DNA from: Takakia lepidozioides | Lineage: Eukaryota > Plantae > Bryophyta | NCBI GenBank assembly: GCA_030704615.1 | Contig: CM060734.1 | Location: 30,318,001 to 30,382,000, forward strand | Length of the DNA: 64,000 nt | Reading direction: 5' to 3' | The notes under the pieces: generated by a model | The model's database searches: none | The model's input: only the letters and a program-made list of their open reading frames with translations | Told to the model about the DNA's origin: nothing | Shown: positions 9,473 through 33,166 of the stretch, one piece after another | How the letters are laid out: each line of letters opens with the position of its first letter | How positions within the stretch are numbered: position 1 is the first letter of the stretch | Made by a program: the position numbers and the translations under genes

Positions 9473-9921
9473 GTTGAGGTGTACTTGGGAGGGCATATGT
9501 TCATTTTTGAATGGTACATATCAAAACAACTTCATCACAAAAAGTGTAACGAATAGACATTGAGGCTGCAAAATATAATTGGAATCCCCACTGGGGAGAA
9601 GGCAGATGCACTGCATGTCATACATTCGTTGCGAGGATGGGCAACAAGTCCAACATGGGACATTTCAGTGTACTGTGCTACAAGTGAGGAATGCCCAAAC
9701 AATGGGGAGTAGATTACACATTGAAGGGGAAAGAGTATAAAAATAGGAAGGTGAATGCGTCCACAAATGCCATGGCAGTCACAGTCTTCTGGGATGGGGG
9801 TTCTTCGACCTTGTCCTAGGCTGTGAACGGTGGGTGGAGACAGAGAGGGACAGAGAGAGGGGTGAGAGGGATACATCAGGGGGCAACAAAGAAAAGAAAA
9901 GAAGGTGGGGGGGGGAAGTGA

Positions 9922-10650
9922 CTGACCTACCTCTGTCAGGGGCTGACGTTGGTAGTAAGACTTAACTTCACATATAGGATTAATCCGGGTTTTCCAGATA
10001 TCCTCTACAAATCCCTTCACACAAGCATCAATCTGCTGTGTGTGAGATGCTCAAAAACTAGGCCTCAGAAGGGGCTGGACTTCTGGCTCAGCCTCGACTT
10101 TTTCAAAGTTAGTAAACAGAGGTACATGCACAATTCCCTTGATAGATTTGAAGAGAGTGTCTCTTTGGTGAGAGAACCCCGGACAGTGTATCAGAAAATG
10201 AGTATTGTCTTCAGATTGCCCACACAACAGACAATTGCACTCTCCCTTTCCTCTCTGCTTCTGTTTGTTGTTCAAAGGTAGGCTTCCTACCCCGAGTTTA
10301 AATTTCAGTCTAGTGCGAGAGTGGGTAAACCCTTGAGGTCATCCAAGATGTCCTCCCCATGTCACTGACTGGAAACAAGTTCAGGGAAGTTTTTTGCCTA
10401 ACTTCATTTTTATCAGACAATCTTATGGCAACAGACATGGTTGGACACTACAGCCTCTAAGTCAGATTTATCCAGCAGGGTGAAGACTTGCGGTTCCAGG
10501 TCCAGGTCCTTGAGAATCTCTTCTACTGTCTTCCGCCAGGACTTAGCCTGTTTGACAGGTCGGTGTGCGGTCATGTTTCCAAGATATAGAGTCGATTAAC
10601 TTAGGATATCTGGTGTTGGACATATGCTGCAGCTGACCCCACCATCTGAC
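9922..10650 (-). mobile_element. Truncated copy of the same LINE (ORF2 C-terminus and start of 3' UTR)
   Basis: Reverse complement of ~5985-6695; encodes CLLCGQSEDNTHFLIHC. Confidence 0.85.
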
Positions 10651-10684
10651 CTCCCCCCCCCCCCAAACCCATTTTTTTTCATTG

Positions 10685-12724: not shown

Positions 12725-15335
12725 TGGAAAAACTGGATGGTGTATAGATGGGCAGCAGGTTGCTACCATCCTACCTTACACTTATTTGTGATCCATGACA
12801 ACATAATCTTGTTTCATGACATGAGTGGATAAGGAAATAGGCCTTTCCAGCCCCTTTGGCAAATCTGTCCAGGGGTTAGAAGCTACTTTGAAGAGGGAGA
12901 ATCCTTATGAAGGGGTCTGGTATGCACTCCCTTACGGGGTGAGTGCATACCACACTTACTCCATAAGGGACTGTCATACCAGGGGCTGGTTGGTGGGTGC
13001 CCCCTCTCTCCCTCTGTCTCCCTCTCTACTGGGAATTGGCAGTTTGCTATCAGTGTTGACTTCTTGTTTTCTCATCCTCTATCAGGCTTTTTCATCCATA
13101 CCGGATGAGCCACCAGGATGGACACTGAGTTACCTCTAGGATGGTTCTTTTGGCCTTTTCATTCCTCCTATATTGACTCTCATCCATACCGGATGAGTCA
13201 CCATGGAAGAAAATAATTACCTCTATGGAGGTTGCCAACAGCATCATGTTTTTCCATCCGTACCGGATGAAAAACTACTAGGGTGATAATTTTTCATTCC
13301 TCTTTTATTGACTCTTTTTATCCATACCGGATGGTCTGGTGAGGAATGATAGAATTACCTAGATGGAGGTAAGACGCTGCCACGGATGATATTCCCTACT
13401 TTTTCATCCTGACACAAGTGATCTGTCTATGGATGATGTGATTATGGCCTGGAATTGATCTTTACTACCCCTAATTATGATTAATTACGGTGGAAACCCT
13501 AACCCCTACCCCAAAATCTATTTTTAACCTTGCTGCGGATGAAATCCGTCAAGGTATACGGATGCGTCCTACTATTTCTCATCCACGGATGAGTAATCGA
13601 GGGACAACCCTATGTCATCTCTCCCGCTGTCAGAAGCACGCGATGTGCTTCTGAGCTCGCGAGGAGAGTGTTATGGCGGACGTGCTTCGGTGGCTGCTCC
13701 GTTTGTGGTGTCGTACCAATGCTGGACGAGCGCCTGGGGGGGCGCGAAGGCGGCGCCTTGTCTCTCTTGCAGCGGGAAACACCGCTATGAATGCAGTGGC
13801 ATCTTCCCTCTTCTGGCTTTTTCTGTGCTTAGCAAGAATGCTTATGATGGGAAGTTCTCTTCCTCCTTTCTAGTGCCTTGCGATTGTGCCTGCTTTGCTT
13901 CATTGCTTATGTGCTTTGTGGAGGCGGCTTGCTGCGGGTGGTGATGGCGCATAACCCTCTTCCCCAATCGCTTAAGGTGCCTTTGGAGTTTAGGGATTCT
14001 CATGTTCTTATCTCTTTCTCTTGCTTTTGAGTTTCTTAGTTGACGTCGATGACAAGTGTGAGGGTCTGTGATTCACCTGGGGTTCCATAATCCTCACTAA
14101 CTTGTTGGTTTTTGTGGGGGCTTGTGATGGGACCAGGTGAGGATCCTCACCTACTTTGAAGTTTCTTGAGCATGCAGATTGGGATATGGGCTGAGGAGAC
14201 CTATGGGTTTTTGTGTTGTGAGGTGGATGCTGTCTGCAGCCCCGAATTCAACCCGACTGCCCCTAGTTTGGCATGCTACAGCCTGCGTTTTGGCCTTTGT
14301 CGTTCTGCCGCCGATGTGCAGCTCGGCCTGACTGGCCTGTTTTTTGAGGCTTGCATACAAACCATACCCTACCTTTTGATCTTTGACAGCAAGGCCTGTG
14401 GATTATTGAGCTAGGTTGTAAGTTCTTTTGGCCAAAGAGGATCTGGTTTCTGGTGGTATTTTTTTGGCGGTTTTGGGTATCTATGGATATGGTGGCCTTG
14501 AAGGTTATGGCGGCAGCCTGATAGGGCAATGCCCTGCTCCTTTTCGGGCCTGCTTCTGATGTGTACTGGATCATAGTAAGGTGTTCTTTGCATGTTTTAG
14601 CATGGAACTCTTGAAGGATGAGGATGGTAAGCTGCAATGGGATCCTACCTATAGTTTTGGATCTGACATCAGGCCTATGACCTCCAATCTGGTTTTTTAT
14701 ATGCAAAAGAGGCTGGATCTCGGCTGTTCAAGTTGCTTGTAGGTACAAGTCTTGAACTTGCATTTTGACAGGTTGAATTCACATTCCCTTGACACCTTGT
14801 ATGATCACATGTCTTAGGATGAATACAAATGATATGGAATTTATTTCATCTTGCCCAAGTTGGATTGCTTGGTGGCATATTGTGATTTTGACAAACTGCA
14901 GGTTGGTCCTTATGCCTTGGCTGATGCATGACCTGCCATAATTAATGGCTGAAAAGGTAAGTTGCTGCAACCCGTGGATCATGTCCAAGATACCTGTGTG
15001 AAAACGTGTCTTGAAATGGTAATAGGGCAGGCTGGACCATGGTACCTTGCCCTTTGCATGACCTCAGCATTTTTGTGCTCCTTCAATATATGACCTGCTG
15101 GTAAGGTATGTGTACAGGCTGAACCAAGAGGCCTTGCAGCCTGCACAGGGGCAATAATATCTTATTTTGTCCCACACATGAACAAATGATTCATTGGCCA
15201 AGATGGCCGGATCTCGGGTGTTCAAGATGCTTGCATCCCCTACATGAAACCCCACCCTCCCACCCTGTTTTATCATGACTGATTGGGTGATGTCAATTCA
15301 TGGGAAGCTATGATAAGAATGGAAATGTTAGATGA
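12725..15335 (+). repeat. Copy 2 of the ~3.2-kb tandem unit, left part (continues at 33818-34410 after the inserted chromovirus)
   Basis: Starts TGGAAAAACTGG..ATGGTGTATAGATGGGCAGC as at 34411; interrupted by the LTR at 15336. Confidence 0.85.
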
Positions 15336-15977
15336 TGTCAAGGACGAGAACATGACTGAACACAAACAAGAGATAAGACTAGAGGTACAAGGCTAGACAA
15401 GAAGTCAAGGTCAGCGTGGCCGAATGCCCGATGAGTAAATAAAAATCAAGACGATCTTTATAACAATGAACAAGAGTACAAGATATTGGAACACGACTTG
15501 AATACTGGAATGCTGGAAACTGGACTGGAGTACCAGATACTGGAAACTGGGCTAGGGTACTGGGAACTGGACTGCAGTACTGGGAACTGGAAACAAGAGT
15601 AGCTTGAAGTGGTGTTGGCGAGACTGAAGAGTGTCCAGTCTCGCCTCCTATATATACTGGCTACTAAGAAGCTTCCCTAAGAAGCTTCCCCTATGGAGGT
15701 TGCTTGCTGGAAAAAATTCCAAGATTAAACAAAGGTTTCTTGATGGAGAAGTTTCCTTAAACAAATGAGGTATCTTGACGGAGAAGTTTTCTCCAAAGGA
15801 AGCTTCCTGAGCAGTTTCCTAAGTTACTCTTGGTAATTTGGTAAACTCCCGGTAACTTGGTAAGTAATGGTAAATCATGGTAAATCACGGTAAGTCATGG
15901 TAACTTTCGGTAACATGGTAACTTGATAACTTCTGGTATTGACTCCTGGTAAGTTCCTCTAGACTCTGTCCGTGACA
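15336..15977 (-). repeat. 3' LTR of the chromovirus
   Basis: TGTCAAGGACG...CCGTGACA; direct repeat of 33169-33817 with scattered substitutions and indels in ACTGG and TGGTAA sub-repeats. Confidence 0.95.
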
Positions 15978-16440
15978 TTACCCCCTCCTCTAGCGCTGAG
16001 TTCCTCGAGGAGCGGTAAAATCTTGGACTTGCTTATAGTTGGAGAAAATCCAAAATCCGGCGAATGGTACTTGCCAAGTATTCGGCTCTTCGTTCTTGAC
16101 TCAAATGATTTATAGGTCCCTACAACCATCGATAGTGTCCAACACCTTGAACTTGGGACCACGCAGTGATTTGAGCATTCTGATTTTCGAAACTCCCTTC
16201 AAACATGATTTCGTTGCCATCTGGGTCCGAAGCCTCAACCTCCAACAAAATTATCAGACTTTGAGTAGGCTCCACTTGCCGTTGTACGGGATCCTGACGA
16301 GGAAGTACGCGTCGCATTGGTGGCCCATCGTCTCGAGAACGTCGGCGTGATGTTGAAGGTCGTGAGAGTCAAAACGGCTGATCTGGTAGCTGGGTAAGCG
16401 ACAACTCCAATGTATCTGGTTCCTGCGACTCCATACTGCC

Positions 16441-16534
16441 TGTCGTGCGCATACATATCGCTACACAACTACATCGCTGTCCAAACCACACCATACATAT
16501 ATGCACAATAAAGTAGTCTGCCACAATCGCCCCC
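16441..16534 (-). repeat. Repeat B2 (3' terminus of the DNMT element)
   Basis: 94 bp with 2 mismatches to 16894-16987; in element sense GGGGGCGAT-TGTGGC...CGACA. Confidence 0.95.
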
Positions 16535-16537
16535 TGA

Positions 16538-16891
16538 TCGAGTGATAGAAAACCAACGAACACACTGTTTACACAAAACATGAAAACCAAACCATCACTC
16601 TTAGAAATAGTAGTCGAGCCAGGGGCACCCCAAGCTATGGGGACTCCACCCCACAACAACCTACACTCCCATCATGAGTACACTAAGATCTAAACGCATG
16701 CAGGAGCTCGGTCGCGCAGGCTCAACTCGAGAAAGATGAGCCGCGCGACTGCCGCTCTCGTGAAGATAAGACGGACCAGGTGTCAAACTAAACTTGACAT
16801 CTGATTTAACACTTGACCTAAATCCAAGTGTTAAATACAAATAACTAGTTTTATTCTAGCTGTTTTCACACTGTGCTTATTTAACTTGACA
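16538..16891 (-). repeat. Repeat A2
   Basis: 354 bp; one mismatch seen against 28112-28465. Confidence 0.95.
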
Positions 16892-16893
16892 GC

Positions 16894-16987
16894 TGTTGTG
16901 CGCATACATATCGCTACACAACTACATCGCTGTCCAAACCACACCACACATATATGCACAATAAAGTAGTCTGCCACAATCGCCCCC
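16894..16987 (-). repeat. Repeat B1, beginning within a PPT-like AGGGGGG
   Basis: Direct repeat of 16441-16534, separated from A2 by the dinucleotide GC. Confidence 0.95.
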
Positions 16988-17237
16988 CTAGCTGGTGGAT
17001 AGGTCCCTCTACCTCCAGATAGCTACAAGATGAAATAGCCACAACCGTACTAAGTCCTCCATCACTGTCCCTATTGTACTCAAACTCTATAGATCAAGAG
17101 GCCGGGTACAAGAGTAGCCCCATCGTTAGTCGCCGTCTTGCAATCTGTGAACTTGAGCCAGGATCTCGTGTGTTCAAGGTCTCCTAGTAGCGGGCCTTGC
17201 GTTTCTTGTTAGCCTTCCATGGTTGTATCCACTCCCA

Positions 17238-17381
17238 CTATCCAATGCAATGTGGACATAACCAATCCCCATCTGGAACCATCTCAAGAGGTGGAGTCAA
17301 GCATCCCATATGCCAACCTCTGGAGCATCGATCACACACCAACATGGTGGCTGCCCCTTTAGCAGACCCACACAACATGCA
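17238..17381 (-). CDS. PHD finger (C4HC3) at the polyprotein C-terminus
   Basis: Hand translation: CMLCGSAKGAATMLVCDRCSRGWHMGCLTPPLEMVPDGDWLCPHCIG-stop. Not in the ORF track. Confidence 0.9.
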   Translation of the reverse strand, partial: CMLCGSAKGAATMLVCDRCSRGWHMGCLTPPLEMVPDGDWLCPHCIG

Positions 17382-17556
17382 CCTCAAACCTGCAGATACC
17401 ACTGCCAGGTTGGGTCAATCCTGCCATCGACATTCGGAAGGTGACATGGCGCACAATTACGCACATGGTCCTTCCAAGTTATGCCATCCCGACCCTCCAA
17501 GACCAAGACGCCTGAGGGCAAGACCTCTCGAACCCTCAAAATAACACGTCCTGCAG

Positions 17557-19240
17557 TCACATCCAGGGTTGTAGAGCAGTCTGCTGCAGATAGACATAGT
17601 CACCAGGGTTGAATCTCCGAACCCCAGGACGATAGCCCCCACCACGTATGGTAGCATACCTCAACGTATCACGGTGTTGTGCAATGGCAAGGTTCTCGAA
17701 AGCCATGGGCATGACTCTCTTGAACAACTCTGCACGCTGCTCACATGCACGTGCCCACACGTCCGGATCGTCAAGGTTAAGAACTGTAGCAGTTTCTCTG
17801 CGAATGGATGTAGGCAAATCCGGCTCTCGGCCAAAGAGAAGAAAGTATGGTGAGAAGGAGGCAAGTGATGCTTGCTTGCTGAACCTGTAGCCCATGGCTA
17901 ACCAGGGTAACTGAAGGTCCCAATCTCCTAGGTGTCCCTTCTGCAAGCCATACTTGCGCAAACCCCTCTTTACTGTCTGAACAACTCTCTCTGCCAAGCC
18001 ATCGGCCTCAGGATGATCCCGAGAAGTGGTGCGGTGGTCTATCAAGGCCTTGTCACACAAAGCCTGAAACTCCCCCAAGAACTCTCTCCCTTGGTCCGTG
18101 AGTACCTCAGCTGGAGCACCGAATCGGCTAAGCACACAATCCAAGAATGCATACGCAGCTCCCTCACTAGCCTTATCAGGCAATGGAACCAATTCAATCC
18201 ACTTGGAGAAGTGCTCCACCATCACCAACACGTACTTGTTGTGGCGCATGGTCAGTGGCAACGGCCCTGCGAAGTCAAGACTCCACCTGTAGCCCAATCC
18301 CATGATCGGAAGAGGGTGCAATTGTGGAGTAGGGGCGTTGAATGAAGCACGCACCCTGTCACACACCATGCACCTAGCCACAAATTGTTGCACCTCTGTG
18401 TGCATACCACGCCACCAATACTGCCCCTGCAGTAGACTATGAGTGCGTCGCACCCCAAAATGCCCCAACTCCTCATGGGCATGGCGCACTAACCGTGCCC
18501 GCTGTGTTGGGTGAGGCACAATCCTCACTCGACCATCCTCCCACACTCGGAGCAGGTGTGTCCCCTCCCACTTGAACCTCTTGGCTCGTTGTAGGATCCG
18601 ATCCCTCTCCTTGGCAGTCACAGTGGCTGCCGTGTCTCCAGTGCGGAGGTAGTCCAACACAACTGAATCCTCATGTATATCTTTGGCGCCACCTTGCTCA
18701 TTGCTGGCCTCAGGGTCCTCAGACACTTGATCTACAGTCATCCCTGTTGCAGGTCCAACCTGGCCTTCCGCTGCCAAGATACACAGAAATGCAGATGCAT
18801 GCCATCCGGGCACCATCTCCTCGTCCGTCTCACCATGCCACCGAGCTCCAGTGTCATCCTGTTGGCTCGTGCATGGATTGCGACTCAACCCATCTGCATT
18901 GCGATTGACCAAACCCGGTCGATGCACCACCTGAAAGTCATACTCTTGAAGGATGAGTGCCCACCGTGCAAGCTTCCCCGTAAGCTTGTCTGACTCCATC
19001 AACCACTTGAGTGGTTGGTGATCCGTGACAAGGGTGAAGAGATTGCCGTATAGATAGCACCTGAAGTGTGCCACGGCCCACACTGCAGCTAAGCATTCTC
19101 CCTCATATGAGCTATACTTAGACTCTGCAGCATTGTTCGAGCGGCTAGCATAAGCCACTACGAACTCTCTTCCCTCATCATCCACCTGTGTGAGCACCGC
19201 TCCAAGCCCCAGCATGCTCCAATCTGTATGCAGCTGAAAA
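17557..19240 (-). CDS. RNase H and DDE integrase of the DNMT element
   Basis: RNase H motifs TDWS, YEGECLAAVWAV, TDHQPL, NADGLSR. Integrase HHCC HEELGH...CMVC and core WSLDFAG, TDQGREF, DGLAERVV. Confidence 0.95.
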
Positions 19241-20367
19241 GACGCCCCCTGATAGGTCGTCTCAAGATGGGCGCCGAGGTCAACCTCGCCTTGAGCTCTT
19301 GAAAAGCTTGTTCTTGCTCATCTTCCCACTGCCACTCCTGGTCCACCTTGGTCAGCTTGGTTAGAGCCTTTGCAATGGCACTAAATCCCTTAACAAACCG
19401 TCTGTAATAGTTTGCTAACCCCATGAAAGCTCGAACTCGGCTCACATCCGTGGGGCGTGGAACCTGTGCAATGGACTCTACCTTAGTCTGCTGTACCCCC
19501 AATCCTCCAGGATATATCATGTGACCCAGATACTCAATCTGGTTGTGGAAAAACTTGCACTTGCCCGGATGTAACTTCAATCCGTGCGTCCTCAAGCGCT
19601 CAAATACCCCCTGAAGGTGTCTCTCATGCTCCTCCACCGTAGCACTAAAGATGATGATGTCATCTATGTAGCACCGAGCAAACTCCACCCCTGCTAGAAT
19701 CCTGTCCATGACTCTTTGAAACTCAGCGGGAGCGTTTTTAAGCCCAAATGGTAAGAACCGCCACTGGTATAGGCAATCCTTCCCGTGCTCATTGATCCCC
19801 CAGAATGCCGTTTTTTGCTTATCCGCCTCCTTGATCGGCAACTGGTGATATCCGGATCGTAAATCCAACGTGCTAAAGACCTTGGAATGCCCAATGGCAT
19901 CAAAGATCTCCTCTGGTTGGCATGGCATACCTATCGGACTTGGTCTGACGATTTACAGGCCGGTAATCACCGCACATACGTCTCTCCGTCCAATTGCCAT
20001 AGACATCCTTCTTAGCTGGCATCACTGTGGCTGAAGCATACTCTCCACCAGAGAGCTCCACCAAACCTGCCTCCCAGAGATCTTGAGTCCTCATCTGAAT
20101 CAAAGACCTCTCCATGTCACTGTATCTATAGGGTCTCCGAAAGATTGGCGTGTCAGTGGCCAACTCAATACGGATCTCTTGACCCTTCAGTGCTCCCAAG
20201 TCCTTCAAACTGAAGGCAAAGCAATTCCTGTAAGCCCTCAGGAACCGCCGTATACGTCGTCTCTCTCCTCCAGTGACAATGGGTCCAATATCAGGCTCCC
20301 AATTGTCCTCCGTAACTGCAACCTTAAGTCCAGTGGGCTTAGAGGTAGAGGACGCGTCCCGTGGTTG
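19241..20367 (-). CDS. Ty3/Gypsy reverse transcriptase of the DNMT element
   Basis: RMCGDYRPVN, LDLRSGYHQ, LPFGLKNAP, YIDDII, YLGH. Confidence 0.95.
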
Positions 20368-20669
20368 CTATGCTGCAACCTCTTGAGCAGTACTCCCTTC
20401 CTGCTCAGTCAATGACAAGGCCTCATCCTGCCCCATCCTCTCATCATTGAGAACCTCCTCATCCCGAGAAGAATCCCCAACCTCATCCATCACAGCTGCC
20501 TTCGCTGCCAACTCCCTCTGAACCTCGAGCACCTCCCACGTGTGCCATGGATGTCTACACCCCGTGGTCCTCACCGGCTCGCCCCCACTCGCTGCCTGTA
20601 CCGTCTCGGTAGGCAGAGAGACCGTCAAGGGAAGTGCACTCCGCACTCTACGTTGCTCAGCCATAGCCA

Positions 20670-21615
20670 AGCTGACAATCCAAGTCAAGCAATTGAGATC
20701 CATTGCTTGCCCCAACACCTGACGACGTGATGCCTCAGAAAGAGAAGGCACCGCCGTGGTCCCAGTGGAAAACCCCATAGCCCGCTCTCGCTCGTCGGCA
20801 TTAGGCTCCACTAACTGCTGCAACTGAGCATCCCACAGGAGGCCAGGTCCACCATCCCGAAAAGCATGGGATCCTGGGAAGCTGAGCAGTGTAGGTAATG
20901 CTGCTCGTGGTTGACCCACCCTGTTGACCACTGCCAAAGGCGAACGGTCATCGTGTCTCACACGTTGAGACTGCCTTCCTGTGTCCAAAATGCCATCCAC
21001 GGTGAGGTGTGCTGGCCGCTGCACCCCATCAAATGCACGCTTGAGCAGTGCGGGTGGCATCAAGTTAGTCCACCATAGTCGTGGACGATGAGCCCGTGAC
21101 CCCACTGCAGCTGCATCCAGCAATACTGCTGACCCAAGCCACGACCGGACTTGATGCACACTGGCCATCACCCTGGCCCGAGAATCACCCATCAGTGGTA
21201 CATTCTCCAAGATGTATGCTGGAGATACAGCTTGATGAAGCTGCAAGCAGCGCAAAATCCGCACCATCTCCCAAAACAGACCCGTCCTCGAGTCTCGCAA
21301 TCCATTGCCATGCCCGGCTGATGAATGCCCTTGGCAGGGCCAACCTGCCACTATCAGATCAATGGAGCCAACCTGCTCCAAATCTTGCGCCCCAACAAGG
21401 AAATGTCTGCTGGCAAGGCTTGTTGGTATCCACGAACTGCAGACACAGGCAACAAGTCAGGGTACTGCTGTACCAACTGAGCCACATGGCGCAGTGAGAC
21501 GCGTCGTGCAGTCTCATCCCTCTCCACATACAGGTAACGCCTTACCCGCACACCTGCCTGTAGCACAGCAGCCAATCCGGTGCTGATCCCGCCAAACAAG
21601 TCCAGAAGGCAAATG
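20670..21615 (-). CDS. C5 cytosine DNA methyltransferase domain, DNMT3-like, embedded in the polyprotein
   Basis: Motif I LLDLFGGISTG; II YVERD; IV DLIVAGWPCQ (catalytic PC); GLFWEMVRIL; VI YILENV; VIII LDAAAVGSRAHRPRLWWTNL; IX ERERAMGF; X RRQVLGQAM. One frameshift near 21390. Confidence 0.92.
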
Positions 21616-22029
21616 CCTTCATCCGGCCGCTGCCACACAAGAGGTGTGGTGTCCAATGGCGACAACTGAGGTGGCCCTGGTGCAATCACCGCACTCTCCT
21701 CCTCTCCTGACGGTACAAAAGCTTCTACCCAAGCTTGTTGCACCCGTCCATCAGCAGCTTGCTGCAAATCCTTGCTCGTACCCCACAACGGAGTGTGAGC
21801 AACCATGGCAGGCAACTCCGCCGTACCATGCATGTCATCCTGCTCTGCTGGAGGTGGCACATCCTCTGCATGGGCATTGCCTTCCAGCAACTCTCCAGGC
21901 CAACTAACTGCAGCTGTGAAGGCGGCTAGTGTTGGCATCTTGCCCCGCTGGGCAGCTGCAATACCCCCAATGAATGTCACAGGGAGCTGTGCACGGCGAC
22001 CATCCCCTGACTGCCATCCAGGCCTGTAG

Positions 22030-22400
22030 GATGCTGACTCCTCCCAGAAATCCAGGGTGAAGCCCATGGGGTATAACACTGCCCCACCAACGAGGACATC
22101 GTAAGAGACCGCGTCTGTCACAATGGCCTTGGCTCGCATCACTGAGCCATCTACAGGATGATCCGGCTGCAGTCTAATAGCCAACTGATGTCGTGTCATG
22201 CCACGAGCCTGCTCTGATCCTCCCAGAGATGTCTGTATCTGGAAAGGACAAGGCTCCATATCCGCCTCCATGAGGCCCAAACCTGCAATAGCAGCTCTGC
22301 CCAACATCAGTGGCTGAGCTCCTGAGTCCAACAAGACCCGCAGTGGCCGGTACTTCTTGCCTGCCGGTCCACTCAAAGTGAAAATGCCTCCCTGGTTGTC
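22030..22400 (-). CDS. Aspartic protease of the DNMT element
   Basis: VLLDSGAQ and YDVLVG motifs. Confidence 0.85.
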
Positions 22401-23094
22401 TAACAAGACAACTCCAGGTGTCACCATGGCGCGCTCAATGGCTGGCCTAGCTGGCAGCTCCGTCAACCTGGCAGCTGCAGCTTGCCAGGGCGCAGCCGTG
22501 GCAGTCTTGACCCTCAAATCGAGGATCCCTCTGCCACTACACCTTCCACTAACTCCGCAGAAGATGAAGTGACCTCCCCACTCTCACAGAGTGTTGCTGC
22601 TAGTCTGAACACTGCAGCTGGTCTCACCCCCGGCGTCGCAATCATGGTTGCCGAGAACAGTGGGGCTTGACACACAGAGGTGGCTGCCCCCAATAACACA
22701 CCGGCTGCACTAGCCTTGGTAGCAGGTGTCAGTGCTGCACGTGTAGCTCTCCCCAATGGCATAGTAACCTCCGCCTCGGTAACAGTCGGGCGAGAACTAG
22801 GTGCCATGGATGGCGTCGACACAGTCTCCGCCAATGTGAATGACTGAGGCAGCCTTGCCTGACGGCTTGCCTCCCCACGTTGTGGATCCAACTCCACCTC
22901 TGCACCTCGTGGCTCAGGAACTCGTGCTGCTCCTCGAGTCACGGCTGCAGCAGACTCCACCTGCTCTAGTGGTAGTGCTGCTCCGCACATGAATCCCATG
23001 CCTCCCATATCTCCTCCCTCAGGAGCAGTAGGTGGACCATCCCGCCTGGGAGCCGGTACCGCCTGAGCTATAGCCATGGCAGCGAGCCTCTGCT

Positions 23095-24566
23095 CTAGCT
23101 GCTGAAGCCAATTGGCCATGCCTTGGTCAACACCCTGACCTCCGCGTCCTTGGCCATGTGGAGCTTGCCCTTGGCCTGCACCTCGTGCCCGACCACCTCG
23201 TCCTCTTTGGGCTGGTCCACCTCGCCCCGGCCACCATTGTTCCCTTGGAACTGGCCTGGGCGCAACTCAGGATGCAAGTCATAACACTGGGCATCTCCAT
23301 GCCCATACTTGCCACAATGCCCACACTGCAACTGTGCAGGCTGTGCTTGTGCCGGCCTTCTGCCATTCTCTGGGCAATCTCTTTTGACATGGGGTCCTCC
23401 ACATGTCCAACATATCACCCCTGGTTGCTGTTGGCCTGCAAAAGATGCCACGGGCCTCTGCACCTGAGGTCCCCTGTAAGCTCCATGGAACTTGGGCTGG
23501 GCAACCTTGCCCCCCTGACCACGCTGTTGGGCAGTCCCTTGTGCCTGTGGGCTGACAGCTGTGCCCCGTACAGGCATGTCCTTGCCAAATCCAATTGTAA
23601 CAACTCGCTCCTCCACCATGTTGAGCTCAATCCGCTCAGCCAGCAGAAACACATCTGCTAATGTGGGTTGGGCTGCTTGTAACAGGGTTGCATCTCGCAC
23701 CCTTCTCTTGAGCTCCTTGTCCAGAATTCCATACCAAACTGGATTGCCTGAGCTTCAGTAACCCCTTGGGTCACACTTATCAAGCGCCTCATACGAGTGT
23801 ACGCCTCTCGCAGGCTCTCACTGGGTTTGCGCTGGAAGTCTTGCAAACTTCGCAGCTTCTCTGTCCGTACACCTTGGTAGTTCCTCCGCAACTCCTGGAA
23901 GAACTCCACCACCGGGTTGAATCTAGGCACATGTGTTGTAGTTGTGGCAGGAGGAGTAGTAGCACCTTTTGAACTGGTACCACCTGCAGAAGTACCAGCA
24001 CTACCTGCTCCACTACTAGTGCTGGCAGTGGGAGCTATTGGTACTGATGCAGCTACTGGTCGCGTCGTGCCTCGAGTAATGGAGACGTAGTCAGGTGACC
24101 AATACATCCTCCACTCCTCAATCTCTGCTTCATGTCCTCGCCTGAACTCGTGGTAATCGTCCATAGGCGGGCCTTCCAAATGCTGGAACAGTCCCTTCCA
24201 CGCCATGAATGGGGTGAATAGCTGTGGATTGCGCATCTGCTGCAAATCACACCAGCTGTCGAACTCCTGGATAAAGTCATCCAACTCGATTGTGCCCACA
24301 GCTCCAGAGTACCTACGAGGCCCCTTGGTAGCTCCATACATCTCCTCCATGTCGTCCCACAACAATGGCGAATGAAAGTGCACACCTGTTGATGAAGCCT
24401 CCGAGTCTGTGTCTGACTCTACAGTAATTGAGGGTGGCGGTGAAGGTGGTCTGAACCGAATACCTCGTCTTGTGAACCCACTCTCACTGTTACTGCCTGT
24501 AGCCGTACTCCCCTCAACACCCTTGGGTAACTCCGTAATGACACTCACAATGTGCACCTCCTCCAC
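23095..24566 (-). CDS. Gag with two zinc knuckles (DNMT element)
   Basis: Capsid-like FQRKPSESLREAYTRM; knuckles CWTCGGPHVKRDC and CGHCGKYGHGDAQC; frameshift near 23737. Confidence 0.85.
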
Positions 24567-25084
24567 GTGACACTATAAGGCTCTAGTACTAATCTAATAG
24601 TGACACGGGTGGGCACCTGTTGCAGTTTAAGGGTCATATCCCAATGGCTCAGGGCACCTGCACCTGCATCCACCGCAAAACTCCTATGGTTGGCTGGTCA
24701 TCAACCCAGCCTCACCATAGAAGAAACACTGGTGGTCTTGCTGGTCATCACTCCAGCCTCACCACCGACAGCATACTCTAGGATTGACCGGTGATCAAAT
24801 CCGGCCTAATCCCTATGAAAGCAAGCGCCCACACAAAACCAACATGGCGCACAGTCAAGCATGCAGGTGTTGGGGGGGATCCAAACACAAGAAATCAAAA
24901 CATCAACACCCCCACACCAAAATCCAGCTGCAATGCTGATCCTGCAGAATATCCCAGCCCAAAACCCCGGACTGACTGGCCTCCACCAAGAGAGGCTTTG
25001 GCAACTACAAGTACAAGGTAATGAAAATAGTACAGAGATGGAGGGGAAGAATAGAAGCCCGACCAAGCAAGATCTAATCCTGAT

Positions 25085-25834
25085 CTATGCTATCAACTGC
25101 CAGACTTCTCTCAAAGTGCCTCGCTCTGCATGATGGTAAGGTGTAGGAGGTATATCTATGTCCAGAAACCTGCCACTAACCTTGTCCCAAGCTACAGTAG
25201 CTCGCTCTAACCAACCCTCCTCCTCTTTCTGCCAGGTAGAGACAACGCAATACTCCCCTATCTCCCGCTCACTGAACACTAAAGAAAACAAAGGTAGGGT
25301 CTGATAGTCTCTCAACTCGAAAGCTTTGAGACGGTTGCGGGTGTCCTCATTGCGAATGATTGCATCCCCTTCAAACAGAACAAACTTGTCCTCGGTAATG
25401 AACCCCCGCTCGTGGTTGCCTTGTGCAGAGCGTGTCCGGCTGCAACGCTGTCTGATTGCACAAACTTGTGTAGCTCCTGCTCCTCTACTCCAGTACACCA
25501 CGGCCTTGTGGCTGAACACCTTGGTCCCCGGGGCTGTCTTTGGCTGTGTTCCAAGCCTAGCTTTCACCCACTTTGGTATTTCACCTACAGCTGCAGAACT
25601 GCTGGCTCCAACAGAGTTCTGACTGTCCAAGGCGATATTGAGGCCCTCAATGCCAACTACAGCAGTCTGTTGTCTACTGCTAATGCCTGACTCCCAGTAT
25701 GCAATCAACTCGTCCAACTGTTCTCCACTCAAATCAGTCTGAGTTCCTTGGGAAACATAAATCCTGTCCCCTTGTGTGCACAGACTAAGAGAAGAGACCT
25801 GCCCTTCAATTACGTCCTCATTTCCCCCAGCCAT
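25085..25834 (-). CDS. Extra 249-aa ORF upstream of gag inside the DNMT element; function unknown
   Basis: Uninterrupted ATG-to-stop ORF on the gag-pol strand. Confidence 0.55.
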   Translation of the reverse strand: MAGGNEDVIEGQVSSLSLCTQGDRIYVSQGTQTDLSGEQLDELIAYWESGISSRQQTAVVGIEGLNIALDSQNSVGASSSAAVGEIPKWVKARLGTQPKTAPGTKVFSHKAVVYWSRGAGATQVCAIRQRCSRTRSAQGNHERGFITEDKFVLFEGDAIIRNEDTRNRLKAFELRDYQTLPLFSLVFSEREIGEYCVVSTWQKEEEGWLERATVAWDKVSGRFLDIDIPPTPYHHAERGTLREVWQLIA

Positions 25835-28100
25835 GCAAGGAGTACATCCACCAATTTGTCTCTCATATAGACCAGAACAGGTTCTAGAAATAGGATTGTG
25901 GATCTTTCATGGCACACTCACACTCTAAAAATTCCATAGATTTTTAGCAGAGTCCTAAAAACAAAAACCAGGTCTAGGTAGGTAGATTCCCCCTTTCTGC
26001 AGCTATCCCCTCAAAAACTGTGTCAAACGGAGTTCATTTGCCAAAGATATGACCAATTAGGCTCTAAATCCTTTAACTTAGATCAAAAGGGTTTTTTTCT
26101 TTTCTTTTCTTTTCTTTTCTTTTTCTTTTTCTTTTCAAATTTAAAAATTCAAATGAAGGTGAGAAGCTCTTTGGAAACTTCCCCTATCCTTACATGCTTT
26201 TCCACCTGGGTCATGCTTTTTCCCTGCAGGGGTGGAATTTGCATATGCTTATCAGCGTTGGAGAGGGCGGCAAGAGCGGACGTACTGATTGCGGGCGTAC
26301 AGAGCTGAAGGATGGGCTTTAGGGGCTATGGCGGCTGTCTCAATGCAGGTTGCAGCGGGAGTCTCCTGCTCGACTCTATGCAAGTCGGGCTTTCTGGCGG
26401 GCTCCAATGTGCTGATGGTTACCACCTCCATGGGGATGCTCAACAGGGTTCATGGCCACACCTTGCACCTTAGTCCAGCTATTGCGCTTCACCCTGTACT
26501 TGTGATATGCACACCTTCAGCATAGACACCAGCAGAGACATGACAATGGCATAGTCGCCAGAAGCTCTAGCAAACGCACCCTTATCACCCATACGATGCT
26601 CAACGTTGCACACTACAGGATCTGGACTGATCAAGGAGTCGTTTCTCCAGAATGTGACTCAGTCGAAACTATGTGGTTTGTTGTTGCAATGATGGAAGCG
26701 AGAGAGCTCGGAAGAAGCTTCACGAATTCGGCTTCAGGGACGAAATCGCTGACAACTCGAGCATTTCTGTCTCTCTTGTGTTTGTGACTGCAAACTCTAC
26801 ATCTTGCCAGGATGATCCGAAACGGAGTGATCTTACCACCCGGCTCTGCTCAGCTCTCCGAAAGCCTGTTAGATAATAGAAGCCAGGAAACCTAGAACCT
26901 TCACTCCAAAACTTCTTGACTGAATATCGGTGGAACTAGGTAGAGTGCACACTGCGTGTAGAAAGGGGCGGGAAGGTTGGTAACAGTAGCAACTCGGAAT
27001 AGAAAGGGCAGCACGTCGCGCGCCATAGATTTCTAGACGGGCCACCTTCTCTGCCACTTTCACCGCACATAATCTCGATTCAATTCGAGATCTTGGCTGC
27101 AAGACTTGCCGGTACCGAGCTTAACGCTTCTCAAGTGATGTCACCCGCTGAGTGAGCTCGGCAACTTCCATGGCCTGAACGTTGCCACTGTGCAAGTTAG
27201 CTGGGGAGGTGGCGTGCAAGTCAATGACGAACAACCTGGTGAGGACATTTTCCTGCCTTTTCCTCCCCCTTCCCTCCTCGCTTTGGCGTCCTTTCAATGT
27301 ACTAAGCTAGTGAGCCATGGCCAGAACTAACACCTCCTCTCCATTCAGTTTGATCACCCTTTGCACCTCTGCTCCCCGCATTTCTCTCCACTACTTTGAA
27401 GAGTCCACACCCGCATCTTTATACCGGAAGCTGGCCTTTCAACAAACACACAACCCAACTAAGGCATCTGAAAGCAAGATCGGGAAGAGCACATCGAAAC
27501 TCTCCACGTACAAGCCGGGGTCCTCCAGATTCTATGCCCGTACCACCTACTTCCCCAGCAACGAAACCAGACCCTCTTCAAGCTCTACATCATCGTCTTC
27601 AAAGTACCGCAGGCCTGGCCGTCACCTGCTCCAAAACTTGTAGACAGCTTTTCCCAAGCACTGTCCTTTCCTAGAAAACTGGGATGCCCACACTCTTCCG
27701 CACATTGGCGAATTGGGCCTTTAACATACAGATGTGACTTTTAACTCCCAAAATGTATGGGCCTGAGCAGCTCTCCAGCTATCCATGTCACTCCAGGCAC
27801 TTTGTATTCATCCTAGGGACGTTGTGGTAGTGCAGATATCAGCGTTCACAGCTTGCCAATGCTGCTCCATGCTGCATTTTTAAGTCTCTCCTTGTGTACT
27901 CCAAAGCCTCTGGTGACTTGGTAGCTTCAGCGACTGTAATAACAGTGGCGGCTCTGGCATCGTCATCCTCCAGGCGTTTCAGGGCACGCTGAATCTTGTG
28001 GTCACATTCAATGATATGCTTCTCAAACTAAGCACTACTTACACACAGGTAATCTTGCAAGTGCTAACCCTCAACTCCTACCTTGCACTCACAGGTAAGA

Positions 28101-28111
28101 GCTCATCTTTC
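28101..28111 (-). promoter_or_regulatory. Putative self-priming primer-binding site of the DNMT element
   Basis: 28101-28117 is the exact reverse complement of 28299-28315 inside repeat A1; 11 nt of it lie outside the repeat. Confidence 0.7.
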
Positions 28112-28465
28112 TCGAGTGATAGAAAACCAACGAACACACTGTTTACACAAAACATGAAAACCAAACCATCACTCTTAGAAATAGTAGTCGAGCCAGGGGC
28201 ACCCCAAGCTATGGGGACTCCACCCCACAACAACCTACACTCCCATCATGAGTACACTAAGATCTAAACGCATGCAGGAGCTCGGTCGCGCAGGCTCAAC
28301 TCGAGAAAGATGAGCCGCGCGACTGCCGCTCTCGTGAAGATAAGACGGACCAGGTGTCAAACTAAACTTGACATCTGATTTAACACTTGACCTAAATCCA
28401 ACTGTTAAATACAAATAACTAGTTTTATTCTAGCTGTTTTCACACTGTGCTTATTTAACTTGACA
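28112..28465 (-). repeat. Repeat A1 (5' terminus of the DNMT element)
   Basis: Starts TGTCAAGTTAAAT in element sense; matches 16538-16891. Confidence 0.95.
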
Positions 28466-28609
28466 TGCCAATACAAGATGCAAGAGTGCTGGAAGTGTAG
28501 CTATATATAGTGATGTGTGGTGCTCCTCCCTCCTTAGCGTGTATCAGGTTCATTGAATGCGGAGTCTTCACCTTGAAGCTAACTTGGCTGACATCATCGT
28601 TGTGACGTC

Positions 28610-31600
28610 TTATTGACGTGTAGCTTGGGGCTTAGCTGGATATCGTTGATGACACTCTTGGACTTTGTCAGATGCATTAGCGAGGTTGGATGAAGGTTCC
28701 CACGTTCGTTCGCTGATGTCGTAGCCTTTCCAATGTACGAAATACTCAAGACGTTTATACATTATGCGAGAGTCTAGGACTTCGTCGACTTCATACTCAA
28801 TTTCCTGATTGACTTCGATTGATGGTGGTGGTACGAAAACTCTCTCTGGAATATTCGATGGATGATACAACTCCAATAATGAAACATGAAAGACTGGATG
28901 GATGCGCATACTTCGTGGGAGTTCAAGCCGAAAACTGACCGGATTTATTTGTCGAATAATTTTGAATGGGCCCAGGCGTTGATAATCCAACTTCCTTGAT
29001 GGTCGCGAGGTTTGTATGTCCCGTCAAAGAAGCCACACAATATCTCCGACCTTGAACTGAGGTTGGAGTTGGCGACGTTGATCTGCATACTCCTTGTATT
29101 ATTTTTGAGCTTCTGCGAGGTGGAATGTAAGCTCCTTGTGAATCGTAACAAGATGAATAGTAAGGTTTTCTGCAGCAAGGCTTCATGTGGAAAGGGTTTG
29201 CTCGAGGATGATGACCATAATTGGAGAAAAATGGAGTTTGCTTAGTTGAAGAATGTATAGTGTTGTTGTAGGCAAACTCAGCCAATGACAGAAGGTCCGT
29301 CCAATTATCTTGGTGATAATTTATCGTATAACGAAGATACTGCTCCAAAATCTGGTTTATACATTCGGTTTGACCATTAGGCTGTGGATGATTAGCTGTA
29401 GAGAGGTTGATCTTAGTATCCAATATATAAAATAATCCCCTCCAGAAATTTGATATGAACTGTGGTCCTCGATCAGATACGATGTCCTTCGGGAGTCCAT
29501 GAATGCGGTAGATATTATTGAGGAAGAGTCTTGCAGTTTCCTCGCCGGTAACCGTCTTATTATATGGAATGAAATGTGTCATCTTCGTAAAACGATCTAC
29601 AATAACAAGGATTGAATAGGTAGTCTTGGAAATTGGAAGGTCCGTAATAAAGTCCATAGACACGGACGACCATGGACCCTTGGGAATGGGTAATGGTTGA
29701 AGAAGGCCGTAAGGTCGATGTCGTGGTCCCTTCGCTCTAGCACACGTGTCGCAAGATTTTATAAATTCTTTTACGAATTTCCATATCTGCGGCCACCAAT
29801 AGTCCCTGAATATTAACTCCATTGTTTTGTTGAAGCCGAAATGTCCTGCAGCCGGAAGATCATGACATGTTTGAAGAATTCGAAGTCGTGTAGGTCCTGG
29901 AGGTACATAGAGAAATCCCTTGAAGTAAAGTAAGTCATCTTTGAATTCGAAGTCGTTTGTAACATGTGGGTTGTCTCGAGGTTGATTTAGTTGACTTCGT
30001 AATGTCGTAGCAAAATGGTCGTTCTTCAGTGCTTCCTGAATTTCTTTTATGATCTCTGCATCGTCATAGGTGGACATGGATAGCATATTCAATTGGAGAT
30101 TTGCTGGTTTTAGGATGATGAATTTTTGTTGGTCAAAAGCTGCATCCCCTTCTTTTGGCGCAAGATACGATCGTCGAGAGAGAGCATCTCGTTTTTCTTG
30201 AAGATGTCCGGGACGGTAGGTAATAACAAAATCAAACCTTGCTAATGACATACTCCATCTCGCTTGACGTCGATTCAAAACACGAGCACTCATAAAATAT
30301 TCGAGATTTTTGTGATCGGTATAGACAGTGACCTGATGTTTAGCTCCTTCCAATAGATGACGCCACTCCTCAAAAGCATCGATAATCGCTAGAAGTTCTT
30401 TGTCATGGATTTCATAATTGATCTCCGCAATGAAAAATTTGCGAGAACGAAAACCAACAGGGTGAAGTCGGCCATCTGTACCGTATTGTGAGAGTACCGC
30501 GCCAAGTGCAAAGTCCGATGCATCTGCTTCTAAGAAGAATGGTTTAGATGGGTCTGCATGTACGAGTATTGGAGCCGTTGTAAATGCCTGCTTCAGCCTT
30601 TCAAATGCCTGGTCAGCCTTCTCGTCCCATACAAATTTGTCGTTCCCTGTGAGTCGTGTCAATGGTGCAGCAATTTTGGAGTAGTCATTGATGAAGATTC
30701 TATAGAAATTTGCAAAACCCAGAAAACATTGTACATCTCGGACCGAAGTTGGTTTAATCCACTCGATGATGATTTGTATTTTTTTCTGATCCATAAAGAC
30801 GTCTTTGTCGGAAATAATGTAGCCCAGAAATTCAACCTCAGATTGATGGAAAAGACATTTCTTCAACTTGGCATATAGTCCTCTTTCTCTTAATTTATCA
30901 AGGACAAGGCGTACATGGCGGCCATGTTCTCCTTCATTCTGTGAAAATATCAAAATGTTGTCCAAATAGATGACTACAAAGTCATCTAAAAATTCTCGAA
31001 AGATGTCATTCATCATATGTTGGAAAATTGTTGGAGTATAAATAAGACCGAAAGACATAACACTATATTCAAAATGTCCATACCTTGTTCGAAAAGCTGT
31101 TTTCCATTCGTATCATTCTTTTATCCGTACAAGGTTATAAGCTCATCTCAAGTCGATTTTGGTTAAAATCTTCGCTCGTCCCAGCTGGTCGAGAAGCCCA
31201 GAAATCAGCGGCAACGGATAACGATTCTTGATTGTGACTTTGTTGAGACCGCGATAGTCGACACACATGCGTAATGATCCGTCCTTCTTTTTCACAAACA
31301 AGATAGGCGCCCCGGCGGGTGATTTTGAATGTCGGATGAAGTGCTTTGACAAATTTTCATCAATGTGCAGCCAACTCCGTCCGGGATAAGTTATAGATTG
31401 GGTCGAATGGTGGTTGGGCTCCTTCTTGTAATTGCACAGTCATAAGGTCGATGTTCTGGCAATATGTCTGCATTTTTATTCTCGAAGACATCTTTGAAAT
31501 CTTGATATTGAGCGGGTAATGTTGAAGTACCTTTGTCTGTTGTGGTCTTGATCGGAGTCGCATAAAGTGCAAATGCCGTCTCTTTTTTGGTAGCTCTCAT

Positions 31601-32130
31601 GAAGGCTCTAGCTCCAAGAAACAGAGGTTGAATACCTTTGGTACTTTTACATTTTTGTCTTGCCGAAATTTTTCGTGATTGCCAGTCGATGTCAGGATTA
31701 TGAAGTATAAACCAGGGAAGTCCAAGGATCACAGGATTTGTTGGAGACTGGATGACATTAAAACAATATGTGATGCTTGATTTTTAAGCTTCACTTCAAG
31801 GGGTCGAGTTTCATGGTCAATATTTCCTGATGGTAACGGTCGTCCATCGATAACTTCAACAGGGGCCGAGAATTTCTTTCTTACGAGCGTTAAATTGTGT
31901 TGCTTCGCAAAGTCTTTGTCAATAAAACACGCCGAAGTGCCCGAGTCCAAAAGTGCTTCTACGGAGATATCTCGATTTTGCATCCTGATCTTTACTAGAA
32001 CTATGAAACAAGATACAGGGTCTGGAGGTAGAAATAGACCTTTTTTTGGTGAGGAATTTGGGGGTGTCCAGCCGCATGGTCCATACTGTGACTGGACATC
32101 TTTGTTTTCCGACCTCCTCGTACCGAACAC
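28610..32130 (-). pseudogene. Chromovirus pol (PR-RT-RH-IN-chromodomain), disrupted
   Basis: ALLDSGTS; [11 protein letters not shown]; YLDNI (YxDD altered); EADASDFALGAVL; SMDFITDLP; SDRGPQF; chromodomain YEVDEVLDSR..YFVHWKGY..TWEP. Several stops and frameshifts. Confidence 0.93.
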
Positions 32131-33130
32131 TTGAGTGGTGCCCCGAGCTTTGAATCTTCTCTTGTTGGGCAGTTTAATGTCATGTGATCATTTTCTCCAC
32201 AATAAAGGCATAATCCATTCGAGCGCCGTCTTTGTTTTTCATGTGGCATCAATGGCTTGAATCAGACAACATCAATCTGCATATGATCATTACCGGATGT
32301 CTGATGGATCGTTGTATTTGGTGCCGTAGTAGCAGCGGCATGGTGCGTCGTCGTCCATCCAGATCGCTTCTCTTGACGTCTTTCGAACAAACGATTATCG
32401 CATGCAATGACTTGGGTGATGAATTCGCTCAGTGTACTCACGTTTGACATTGTCAGCAACTAATATTTAACATCATCTTTTAGGCCACATCGAAACTGAC
32501 TAATGAGGCTCTTCTCATTCCAGTCAAGGTCGCACGCAAGTTGTCGAAATTCGGCAGCATAAACGGAAGCTGGACGTGCTCCTTGTCGAAGATTTCGCAT
32601 CTTTGTCTCTGCAACTCTCTCTCTCTATCATTCTCTCCAAACGTTGCAGTGAACTCGGACATGAACGCTTCAAAATTGTATAGTAAATATGAATTTTTCT
32701 CTAATAGCGGTGCAAACCAAGATAGGGCAGTGCCTGATAGAAGGGTGCCCACGAATCCCACTTGAATACCTTCATCAGAGTAGCGTTGTGGATGTAGTCG
32801 TAGGAACAATCGTACTTGTTGAACAAAACCGCGAAATCTTGATTTCGTCCCATTAAATTTCTTGGGCATGTTGACCTTTGGTTCCCTTGTAATCTGTTGA
32901 AGATTTGGAGGAACCGTTGTAGTAGAATTTGTTGTAGTAGAGACTCGTAATGTTGAAGATCCATTGTTCGACTCCTTCAACTCTGAAATTTGTTGTTGCA
33001 AATTGTTGAGAACATTGCCAAGGTCTTGAGACTGGTCAGCTTGTAGTTGGGCATTAGAAGCACAAAGTTCTTGCATCTGAAGCTGAAGACTTTGCAATGT
33101 GGCGACCATTTCCGCAAATGTGCCTTCCAT
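32001..33130 (-). pseudogene. Chromovirus gag, disrupted
   Basis: PKKFNGTKSRFRGF, LLSGTALSWF and knuckle CLYCGENDHMTLNC across three frames. Confidence 0.88.
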
Positions 33131-33155
33131 CTTAACTAACTAAGGAACAAACTTT

Positions 33156-33166
33156 AGTCTCGCCAA
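33156..33166 (-). promoter_or_regulatory. Self-priming PBS of the chromovirus
   Basis: Element-sense TTGGCGAGACT is complementary to AGTCTCGCCAA at 33448-33458, about 30 nt downstream of TATATATA (33482-33489) in the 5' LTR. Confidence 0.8.

Follow-up and report, generated by a model that had tools for sequence, protein, structure and literature searches.

What a DNA methyltransferase does inside a retrotransposon has been an open question since 2018, and the hosts in which such elements are known are hard to work with. A stretch of 64,000 nucleotides from the bryophyte Takakia lepidozioides (contig CM060734.1, positions 30,318,001 to 30,382,000; hereafter the window) raises this question in a land plant, as an initial annotation had placed a DNMT3-like cytosine methyltransferase within a retrotransposon polyprotein. 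Capture of DNMT genes by retrotransposons is already known. What is new here is the presence of such a family in a model liverwort, together with its putative expression at Gag levels and a candidate integration route that would yield permuted elements.

Structure of the element

Repeat mapping delimited a whole element on the minus strand, and contigs of runs X2 and X5 join position 16436 to 28466 with four shared bases, which corresponds to the empty site. The domain order is Gag-PR-DNMT3-(UAG)-RT-RH-IN-PHD, i.e., the Gag-PR-RT-RH-IN order of Ty3/gypsy elements with a DDE integrase. Instead of two identical terminal LTRs, the repeats are laid out as A1-coding-B1-A2-B2. The features are as follows:

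16441..28465, minus: whole Ty3/gypsy element, 12,025 bp, TG...CA ends (repeat mapping and empty-site joint)
28466..28469, minus: 4-bp target-site duplication, 5' copy (3' copy at 16437-16440)
28112..28465, minus: repeat A1, 354 bp, starts TG, 353/354 identical to A2; predicted transcription start at about 28315
28101..28117, minus: predicted self-priming primer-binding site at the end of A1, 17 nt complementary to 28315-28299
26164..28100, minus: copy-specific insert of about 2 kb, depth about a thousand-fold below that of the element body
26379-26516: broken piece of ribosomal protein uL2/L8 inside the insert (PF03947, E 8e-10)
25085..25906, minus: 273-codon open frame upstream of gag, multi-copy by depth
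23224..24350, minus: Gag, frame broken at about 23735 and 23224 (PF03732, weak, E 7e-4)
23412-23389 and 23325-23299, minus: two zinc-knuckle-like motifs in Gag
21984..22469, minus: aspartic protease, DSG at 22334-22317 (PF13975/PF13650, weak)
20644..21620, minus: DNMT3-type C5 cytosine methyltransferase (PF00145; motifs I, IV, VI, VIII, IX, X), frame break at about 21390
20362..20370, minus: in-frame TAG (20370-20368), then CAA CCA (CAR-YYA context)
19236..20367, minus: reverse transcriptase, YIDD at 19670-19659, broken at about 19915 (PF00078, E 2e-31)
17575..19236, minus: RNase H and DDE integrase, catalytic acidic residues present (PF17917, PF17921, PF00665)
17241..17411, minus: PHD finger at the end of pol (PF00628, 46.9 bits, E 3e-12)
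16893..16987, minus: end of the polypurine tract and repeat B1 (ends CA), followed by a 2-nt spacer and A2
16538..16891, minus: repeat A2, starts TG (repeat mapping)
16441..16534, minus: repeat B2, ends CA, 93/95 identical to B1

Gag is 48-65% identical to Marchantia proteins, and the 273-codon frame had no match in Pfam or in the Atlas. The 5' region measures 3,762 nt here versus 1,142-1,233 in six relatives; the private insert with its uL2/L8 piece is perhaps a captured host mRNA.

The methyltransferase domain

The C5-methyltransferase motifs named in the initial annotation were all found on the minus strand by motif reading, in the canonical (non-DRM) order and with the catalytic Cys, Glu, and Arg:

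21599-21576, minus: motif I
21360-21331, minus: motif IV (GWPC)
21213-21199, minus: motif VI (ENV)
21093-21061, minus: motif VIII (HRPR)
20787-20770, minus: ERAMGF string
20727-20707, minus: RRQVLGQ string

The suggested profile check was positive, as frame 20368-21456 matched PF00145 with 49.3 bits (cut-off 22, E 6e-13) in a Pfam profile search. When a profile of 18 family domains was compared with the PDB, DNMT3A ranked first (E 9e-26), followed by DRM-type enzymes (3e-15 to 6e-12), HaeIII/HhaI (5e-10), DNMT2 (4e-9), and DNMT1 (0.09). The structure predicted for a Calypogeia relative (P0001) has pLDDT values mostly of 85-96 across the DNMT domain, and Foldseek returned DNMT3A/B as its top matches (DNMT3A E 2e-15, TM 0.81 by target). 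By sequence similarity and predicted fold, the domain is nearer to DNMT3 than to DRM, DNMT1, DNMT2, or bacterial enzymes, in agreement with the identity first proposed. The catalytic Cys, EN, and HRxR are invariant in all 18 aligned domains (37-76% identical to the first). In the assembled Takakia copy, the motifs described as intact are indeed present, but motif I lies in another frame than motifs IV-X (break at about 21390); at this position the DNMT frame is uninterrupted in the relatives P0001, P0004, and L026. Natural relatives with an uninterrupted DNMT domain include Marchantia Mp4g09160 and Calypogeia CAM6115131.1.

Distribution, phylogeny and selection

Searches with the DNMT domain retrieved 59 longer proteins among 2,838 candidates, including matches from Calypogeia fissa (73%) and Sphagnum fallax (54%) and 15 gene models of Marchantia polymorpha (56-73%). 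In M. polymorpha the family appears as annotated hypothetical proteins, with 18 members in one cluster. The question raised by this locus is therefore testable in a genetic model with methylation mutants; annotated copies of the family can also inflate DNMT gene counts in bryophytes. A profile search yielded 97 shorter proteins, two of them from Closterium, and no protein named Klebsormidium occurred among the 59 and 97 matches, most of which carry no species name.

Among representatives clustered at 50% identity, 572 clusters were matched at E≤1e-30. A retroelement domain is present in 104 of the best 150 of these, and the other 46 are all shorter than 700 residues. The catalytic Cys motif was found in 146 of the 150, with E replacing P before the Cys in 89 of those 146. 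The largest group of relatives has the order RT-RH-DNMT-INT-PHD (full form in 33 of the 150). One of ten representatives that were looked up is a Scenedesmus pol protein with its DNMT between RNase H and integrase; the initial annotation had spoken of a land-plant lineage, which proved too narrow since the lineage reaches chlorophytes. The sister clade with this arrangement (P0046-P0056 and P0210-P0354, including the Scenedesmus pol) has many members with E before the catalytic Cys. In both the RT (100/99) and the DNMT (0.98) trees this clade is a single branch, so the domain moved once within pol. A further family member, P0114 (HEY9806811.1), bears the annotation of a bacterial DNA cytosine methyltransferase and comes from a metagenome-assembled genome; since its cluster also contains a 1,359-aa protein from a 9.3-kb contig, it is likely a plant or algal retroelement contamination.

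The 80 metagenomic loci used here are the best of 311 confirmed. Trees of DNMT and RT were compared for 82 proteins or loci that have both domains and proved congruent (Mantel r 0.77, versus at most 0.20 in 999 shuffles), and 16 of the 22 strong DNMT splits recur in the RT tree, an agreement inflated by near-identical rows. This agreement fits one old DNMT capture in green plants that is not confined to Klebsormidium, with relatives that span chlorophytes to bryophytes. The Takakia element falls near the base of the RT tree, with no firm placement; its RT is only 33-37% identical to that of a chromovirus in the window and is joined to chromovirus RT by a long branch. In three scans of the virus collection, the only methyltransferases found were distant ones of phages or giant viruses (best E 4e-15, 26-52% over part of the domain); the RT-integrase ORF had no relative there, and no viral donor of the DNMT emerged.

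The selection check gave dN/dS ratios of 0.10-0.13 in the three least saturated DNMT pairs, which compare families rather than copies of one genome. The other 12 of the 15 pairs, with dS of 1.7 or more or saturated, gave 0.08-0.28 or upper bounds. RT ratios were 0.06 in L026/L035 and 0.47 in L012/L013, a pair of decayed copies. Judged by these substitution ratios, the DNMT is under purifying selection.

A conserved stop codon after the methyltransferase

The DNMT does lie between protease and RT, as first described, but the in-frame TAG at 20370-20368 cuts it off from RT. It was therefore misread as part of one polyprotein run with RT: in this lineage the DNMT belongs to the Gag-protease ORF, before a conserved stop. 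Specifically, TAG CAA CCA separates Gag-protease-DNMT3 from RT-RNaseH-integrase-PHD in this copy, and an in-frame UAG with a context of TMV type divides the two parts in most of the land-plant relatives examined. In one subfamily, a stop occupies the homologous codon in 32 of 33 aligned metagenomic loci, some of which are the same insertion in different assemblies; 21 read TAG CAA CCC and 9 TAA CAA CCC, and CAA-CCY follows in 31 of the 33. Another subfamily has TAG CAG TTA or TAG CAA TCA (CAR-YYA) in all four loci. CAR-YYA after UAG is the readthrough signal of TMV (PMC2754532). This context is shared by the Takakia copy and the four-locus subfamily, and CAR-YYA occurs at 0.35% of element positions; the stop-codon scan missed its motif in 13 of the 80 loci. 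In L026, the frame before the stop is open for 1,369 codons (Gag-PR-DNMT) and the frame after it for 1,047 (RT-RH-IN-PHD), and many proteins from liverworts and metagenomes terminate 70-194 residues past motif X.

From this arrangement, the UAG quite probably stops most ribosomes, with a few reading through to RT-RH-IN-PHD. As the stop separates Gag-PR-DNMT3 from RT onward, production of the enzyme likely matches that of Gag and exceeds that of RT and integrase. Such a dosage is not universal, since a third subfamily (L044, L046, L055, L073, P0108, and P0111) lacks the stop and the largest subfamily has CAA-CCC, not strict CAR-YYA.

Priming, split repeats and integration

The sequence that follows A1 is complementary over 17 nt to a site 151 nt into A (null maximum 9 nt). 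The predicted transcription start was deduced from this pairing, and RNA from that start folds back onto the primer site (z -4.9). Among 23 older copies with unrelated sequences, pairing of 15-17 nt was found in 8 and of at least 11 nt in 11. The RNA would thus very likely prime itself by the mechanism of Tf1. Self-priming is known for Tf1/Sushi and Tcn1 elements (PMC6317226). Priming by a tRNA was discarded, as no TGG-type site is present after A1 (judged by eye).

The polypurine tract (PPT) lies directly before B1 and the primer site directly after A1. The LTR produced by ordinary reverse transcription would therefore be B-nn-A, and the integrase ends CA and TG would lie within it. The spacer between B1 and A2 measures 2 nt in 13 of 13 cases and reads CA-nn-TG in 10 of them. 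The A2|B2 junction lacks this constancy. Among 11 copies it is precise in five and substituted in one, and the other five bear scars: a PPT piece and 2 extra bases in the Takakia copy, one extra purine in L049, a primer-site piece in L025, and deletions in L068 and L077. Scars of this kind are typical of joined cDNA ends. The L025 junction (L025:5538-5819) retains 15 bases that resemble the primer-binding site. Target-site duplications of 4 bp flank 6 of 8 complete relatives, i.e., 7 of 9 complete elements when this copy is included.

These junctions lead us to infer joining or extension of the cDNA ends, with the integrase cutting at the internal sites. Accounting for the layout by a true LTR of B-nn-A, with internal integrase ends (CA|nn|TG), cDNA ends rejoined in each cycle and A-coding-B-A-B as the inserted form, is somewhat more plausible than not. 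Integrase can cut an internal palindromic CA..TG junction, as described for foamy virus and HIV-1 circles (PMC1180852, PMC4372172). In the published accounts of these viruses the cut junction is the LTR-LTR joint and its use restores a normal provirus, whereas here the site would lie inside the LTR and produce a permuted element. A freely cut two-LTR circle should also give the reciprocal form A-B-A-coding-B, which none of the 23 copies shows, whereas seven loci have A-coding-B forms. Both observations would be compatible with a one-sided extension. The one-repeat forms, which end in PPT-B-flank (L004, L010, L015, L029, L044, L073, and L080), could be one-LTR insertions or products of B1 x B2 recombination; that of L015 is complete, with a 4-bp duplication.

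The split repeats may instead have been inherited in the manner of PAT/Ngaro elements, with the RNA running into B2 and B1|A2 serving as an internal template, a less probable account that nevertheless deserves weight and that would leave the reading of the DNMT unchanged. The A-coding-B-A-B layout is that of DIRS-like elements, and both the five precise A2|B2 junctions and the missing reciprocal product would suit it. However, DIRS/Ngaro elements have a tyrosine recombinase and no target duplication, while this element has an rve integrase and a 4-bp duplication, as found in most complete elements of the family. The positions of the polypurine tract and primer site also fit ordinary LTR reverse transcription with a DDE integrase, and scars occur only at A2|B2. 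If the B-nn-A model is true, this DDE integration route differs from that of textbook LTR elements, which would explain how the clade was overlooked.

Age and state of this copy

The two A repeats differ at 1 of 354 bases and the two B repeats at 2 of 95 (together 3 of 449). Since the repeats are about 99% alike, the insertion is young, which upholds the description of a recently active element. At a moss substitution rate of 9e-9 per site and year, their divergence gives an age of about 0.4 million years. Summed contig depth in run X2 was about 0.6-1.3 million over the element body versus 500-940 over the private insert, with similar ratios in runs X1 and X6; this depth is not a copy count, and it suggests a family of at least hundreds of copies. 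Run X5 (RNA or DNA) had no cover over 20821-21231, a gap that carries no weight in either direction.

The assembled coding region contains eight frameshifts, one of them inside the DNMT, and no premature stop in 2,308 codons (ten pieces). At six of the eight breaks, contigs of all four runs differ from the assembly by 1-2 bases, and all six are losses of 1-2 bases at short single-base runs. Such losses are the usual error pattern of long reads. Because these six breaks are not common to sister contigs and lie at single-base runs, sequencing error is the likelier cause. The contrary view, that the frameshifts are real, this copy is dead, and only its sisters are competent, is unlikely. It can draw on the number of frame changes in the assembly, on the private 2-kb insert, and on the breaks at about 21390 and 17575, which are not among the 12 of 29 indel rows listed. 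However, the absence of premature stops, the near-identity of the repeats, and the long-read-like character of the six breaks all speak against this view.

Putative role of the methyltransferase

In the proposed mechanism, a Gag-protease ORF that ends in DNMT3 would yield the enzyme at Gag levels, the enzyme would be packed in the particle with Gag, and it is predicted to CG-methylate the element's own cDNA before integration. New copies would then arrive with a CG-only, gene-like mark that the host maintenance enzyme could keep, while the PHD finger would steer insertion to chromatin with unmethylated H3K4. The parts of this mechanism differ in strength. From its conserved motifs, the DNMT is probably active. 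That its main substrate is the element cDNA is a reading that we slightly prefer, and the same marginal preference applies to the mechanism of a Gag-level, packed DNMT3 acting on its own cDNA when taken as a whole. Steering by the PHD finger is evenly balanced between being right and being wrong. A broader picture remains tentative and on the doubtful side: an ancient Ty3/gypsy clade found throughout green plants and still expanding in land plants, which would combine DNMT3 at Gag stoichiometry through a leaky stop, CG methylation of cDNA, integrase sites inside the LTR of an end-joined cDNA in place of the ends of a linear one, and permuted repeats missed by LTR-finding programs.

The base composition of the element bears on CG methylation. 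Its observed/expected (o/e) ratio of C3pG1 is 0.32 (51 vs 158 expected), compared with 0.35 in L026 and 0.78 in the neighbouring chromovirus, a control of one element whose GpC control is also low (0.67). CHG is not depleted (o/e 1.10). However, host exons are equally CpG-poor (C3pG1 o/e 0.33-0.45), so host enzymes could explain the depletion. The solved fingers nearest to the PHD are those of CHD4, PHF12, and KDM5A/B PHD1, with ATXR5, BAZ2, and UHRF1 also matched. The PHD fingers of CHD4, PHF12, KDM5, ATXR5, BAZ2, and UHRF1 are readers of unmethylated H3 tails. A targeting role of the finger would be in line with the place of this copy inside another element.

An active enzyme might also work mainly on host chromatin or on the target site, within the pre-integration complex or in trans, rather than on cDNA. 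DNMT3A carries an ADD domain, an H3-tail reader, which offers a parallel to an element that combines DNMT3 with an H3-tail reader, and in the largest group of relatives the DNMT directly precedes integrase and PHD. On the other side, DNMT and IN-PHD lie on opposite sides of the stop in this lineage and are thus likely separate and unequal in amount, and the methylome of Klebsormidium nitens is described as plant-like (PMC5890265). This makes action on host DNA distinctly improbable. Slightly less probable still is a domain that acts with no DNA methylation, whether by binding nucleic acid inside the particle, by methylating RNA, or by oligomerising with host DNMT3 as a decoy. Production in bulk would be in keeping with either a structural or a decoy function, and E-C is frequent in motif IV. 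The algal relative KnitGypsy-Dnmt3 gave no methylation of yeast DNA, in a test that its authors regard as inconclusive; SymbioDIRS-Dnmt3, in favour of CG methylation, methylates CG de novo in yeast (PMC5890265). Against a non-methylating role, the residues for SAM binding and catalysis have been retained even between very distant elements, and the nearest folds are the DNA-methylating DNMT3A/B, not DNMT2. Finally, a one-off passenger, nested host fragment, or assembly chimera is ruled out for practical purposes, even though a private piece of host origin is present in the 5' region of this copy: the DNMT is carried by the whole family, at the same position in liverwort and metagenomic relatives, its depth equals that of the rest of the body, its tree agrees with that of RT, and its dN/dS is about 0.1, all of which also dispels the concern about a single capture raised at the outset.

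Comparison with known elements

The closest published system is KnitGypsy-Dnmt3 of K. nitens, an element with split repeats whose capture was treated as specific to that lineage (de Mendoza et al. 2018, PMC5890265), whereas the relatives reported here span chlorophytes to bryophytes. As described there, both elements share Gypsy domains, an unrearranged and intronless Dnmt3 with its catalytic residues kept, DIRS-like A-coding-B-A-B repeats, and purifying selection (Ka/Ks below 0.2 in the alga). By that published description, the Takakia element can be likened to KnitGypsy-Dnmt3 in how it would work. They differ in host (alga versus land plant), in apparent abundance, with the present family looking far more abundant, and in reading frame: Dnmt3 shares the ORF of RT and RNase H in KnitGypsy-Dnmt3, and that of RT in L046, P0108, and P0111, whereas a conserved stop intervenes here. 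The text of that report makes no mention of a PHD, self-priming, readthrough, or internal integrase ends. SymbioDIRS-Dnmt3 likewise holds a Dnmt3 in a retrotransposon with split repeats (PMC5890265), but is described as a tyrosine-recombinase element, unlike the DDE integrase and 4-bp duplications found here.

Several other systems share single traits, as far as their published descriptions go. EpiLTRs of Cymbomonas and Euglena are LTR elements that also pair a DNMT with a chromatin reader, in their case a DNMT4-related enzyme and DAM with a chromodomain as opposed to DNMT3 with PHD (bioRxiv 10.64898/2026.05.21.726589). Host DNMT3 genes of non-flowering plants have the same type of catalytic domain in canonical order (Yaari et al. 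2019, PMC6453930); they carry DUF3444, which the domain in the retroelement lacks. Tcn1 and Tf1-Sushi chromoviruses are self-priming Ty3/gypsy elements of mosses (Neumann et al. 2019, PMC6317226), as here, but differ in having a chromodomain and neither split repeats nor a DNMT; in the Takakia element a PHD finger takes the place of the chromodomain after integrase. Gypsy-7a_cRei and REM1 of Chlamydomonas have a gypsy polyprotein with PHD and an intergenic insertion bias, but ordinary paired LTRs and, in their description, no DNMT (10.1101/2022.06.16.496473).

Morozov et al. 2019 write that land plants, such as tracheophytes, lack methylase-coding transposons (PMC6338049). In the survey table of de Mendoza et al., Physcomitrella has 9 and Selaginella 10 DNA_methylase genes, and Marchantia is not included (PMC5890265). 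Two later papers, in the text available, say only "streptophytes" for such elements. The accessible text of PMC11982613, 10.1101/2021.11.30.470311, 10.1101/2021.02.12.428880, PMC8557442, and PMC5784723 holds nothing on the family. In the literature searched, with Repbase, subscription papers, and some figures and supplements outside its scope, we found no report of such elements from land plants or chlorophytes and none with the readthrough, priming, or integration features.

Genomic surroundings

The element sits inside the 3' untranslated part of a chromodomain-bearing Ty3/gypsy element (window 15336-33817, minus). The LTRs of this host chromovirus (33169-33817 and 15336-15977) are 90% alike, and its chromodomain ends at about 28615. 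The chromovirus itself lies inside a repeat pair (12728-13657 and 34427-35335) that is 96% alike.

Two host genes were identified, an aminodeoxychorismate-synthase-like gene (PF00425; 39349-46787, plus) and a DGAT3-like gene (60901-62392, plus). Their exons are CpG-poor (C3pG1 o/e 0.33 and 0.45, respectively), which may point to gene-body methylation in the host. The DGAT3-like exons gave 24 matches, including a JGI protein (49-50%), Ceratodon purpureus (40%, E 2e-33), and angiosperms at E 4e-10 or weaker. With no liverwort or fern named among them, these matches give moderate support to a moss as host. Long open frames occur at 368-2574 (plus) and 35531-36442 (plus); the frames at 883-2574 and 35531-36442, which had no match in Pfam, probably belong to other mobile elements. 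A dispersed repeat family is present in both orientations at 4767-6732, 9916-10652, and 57742-59035.
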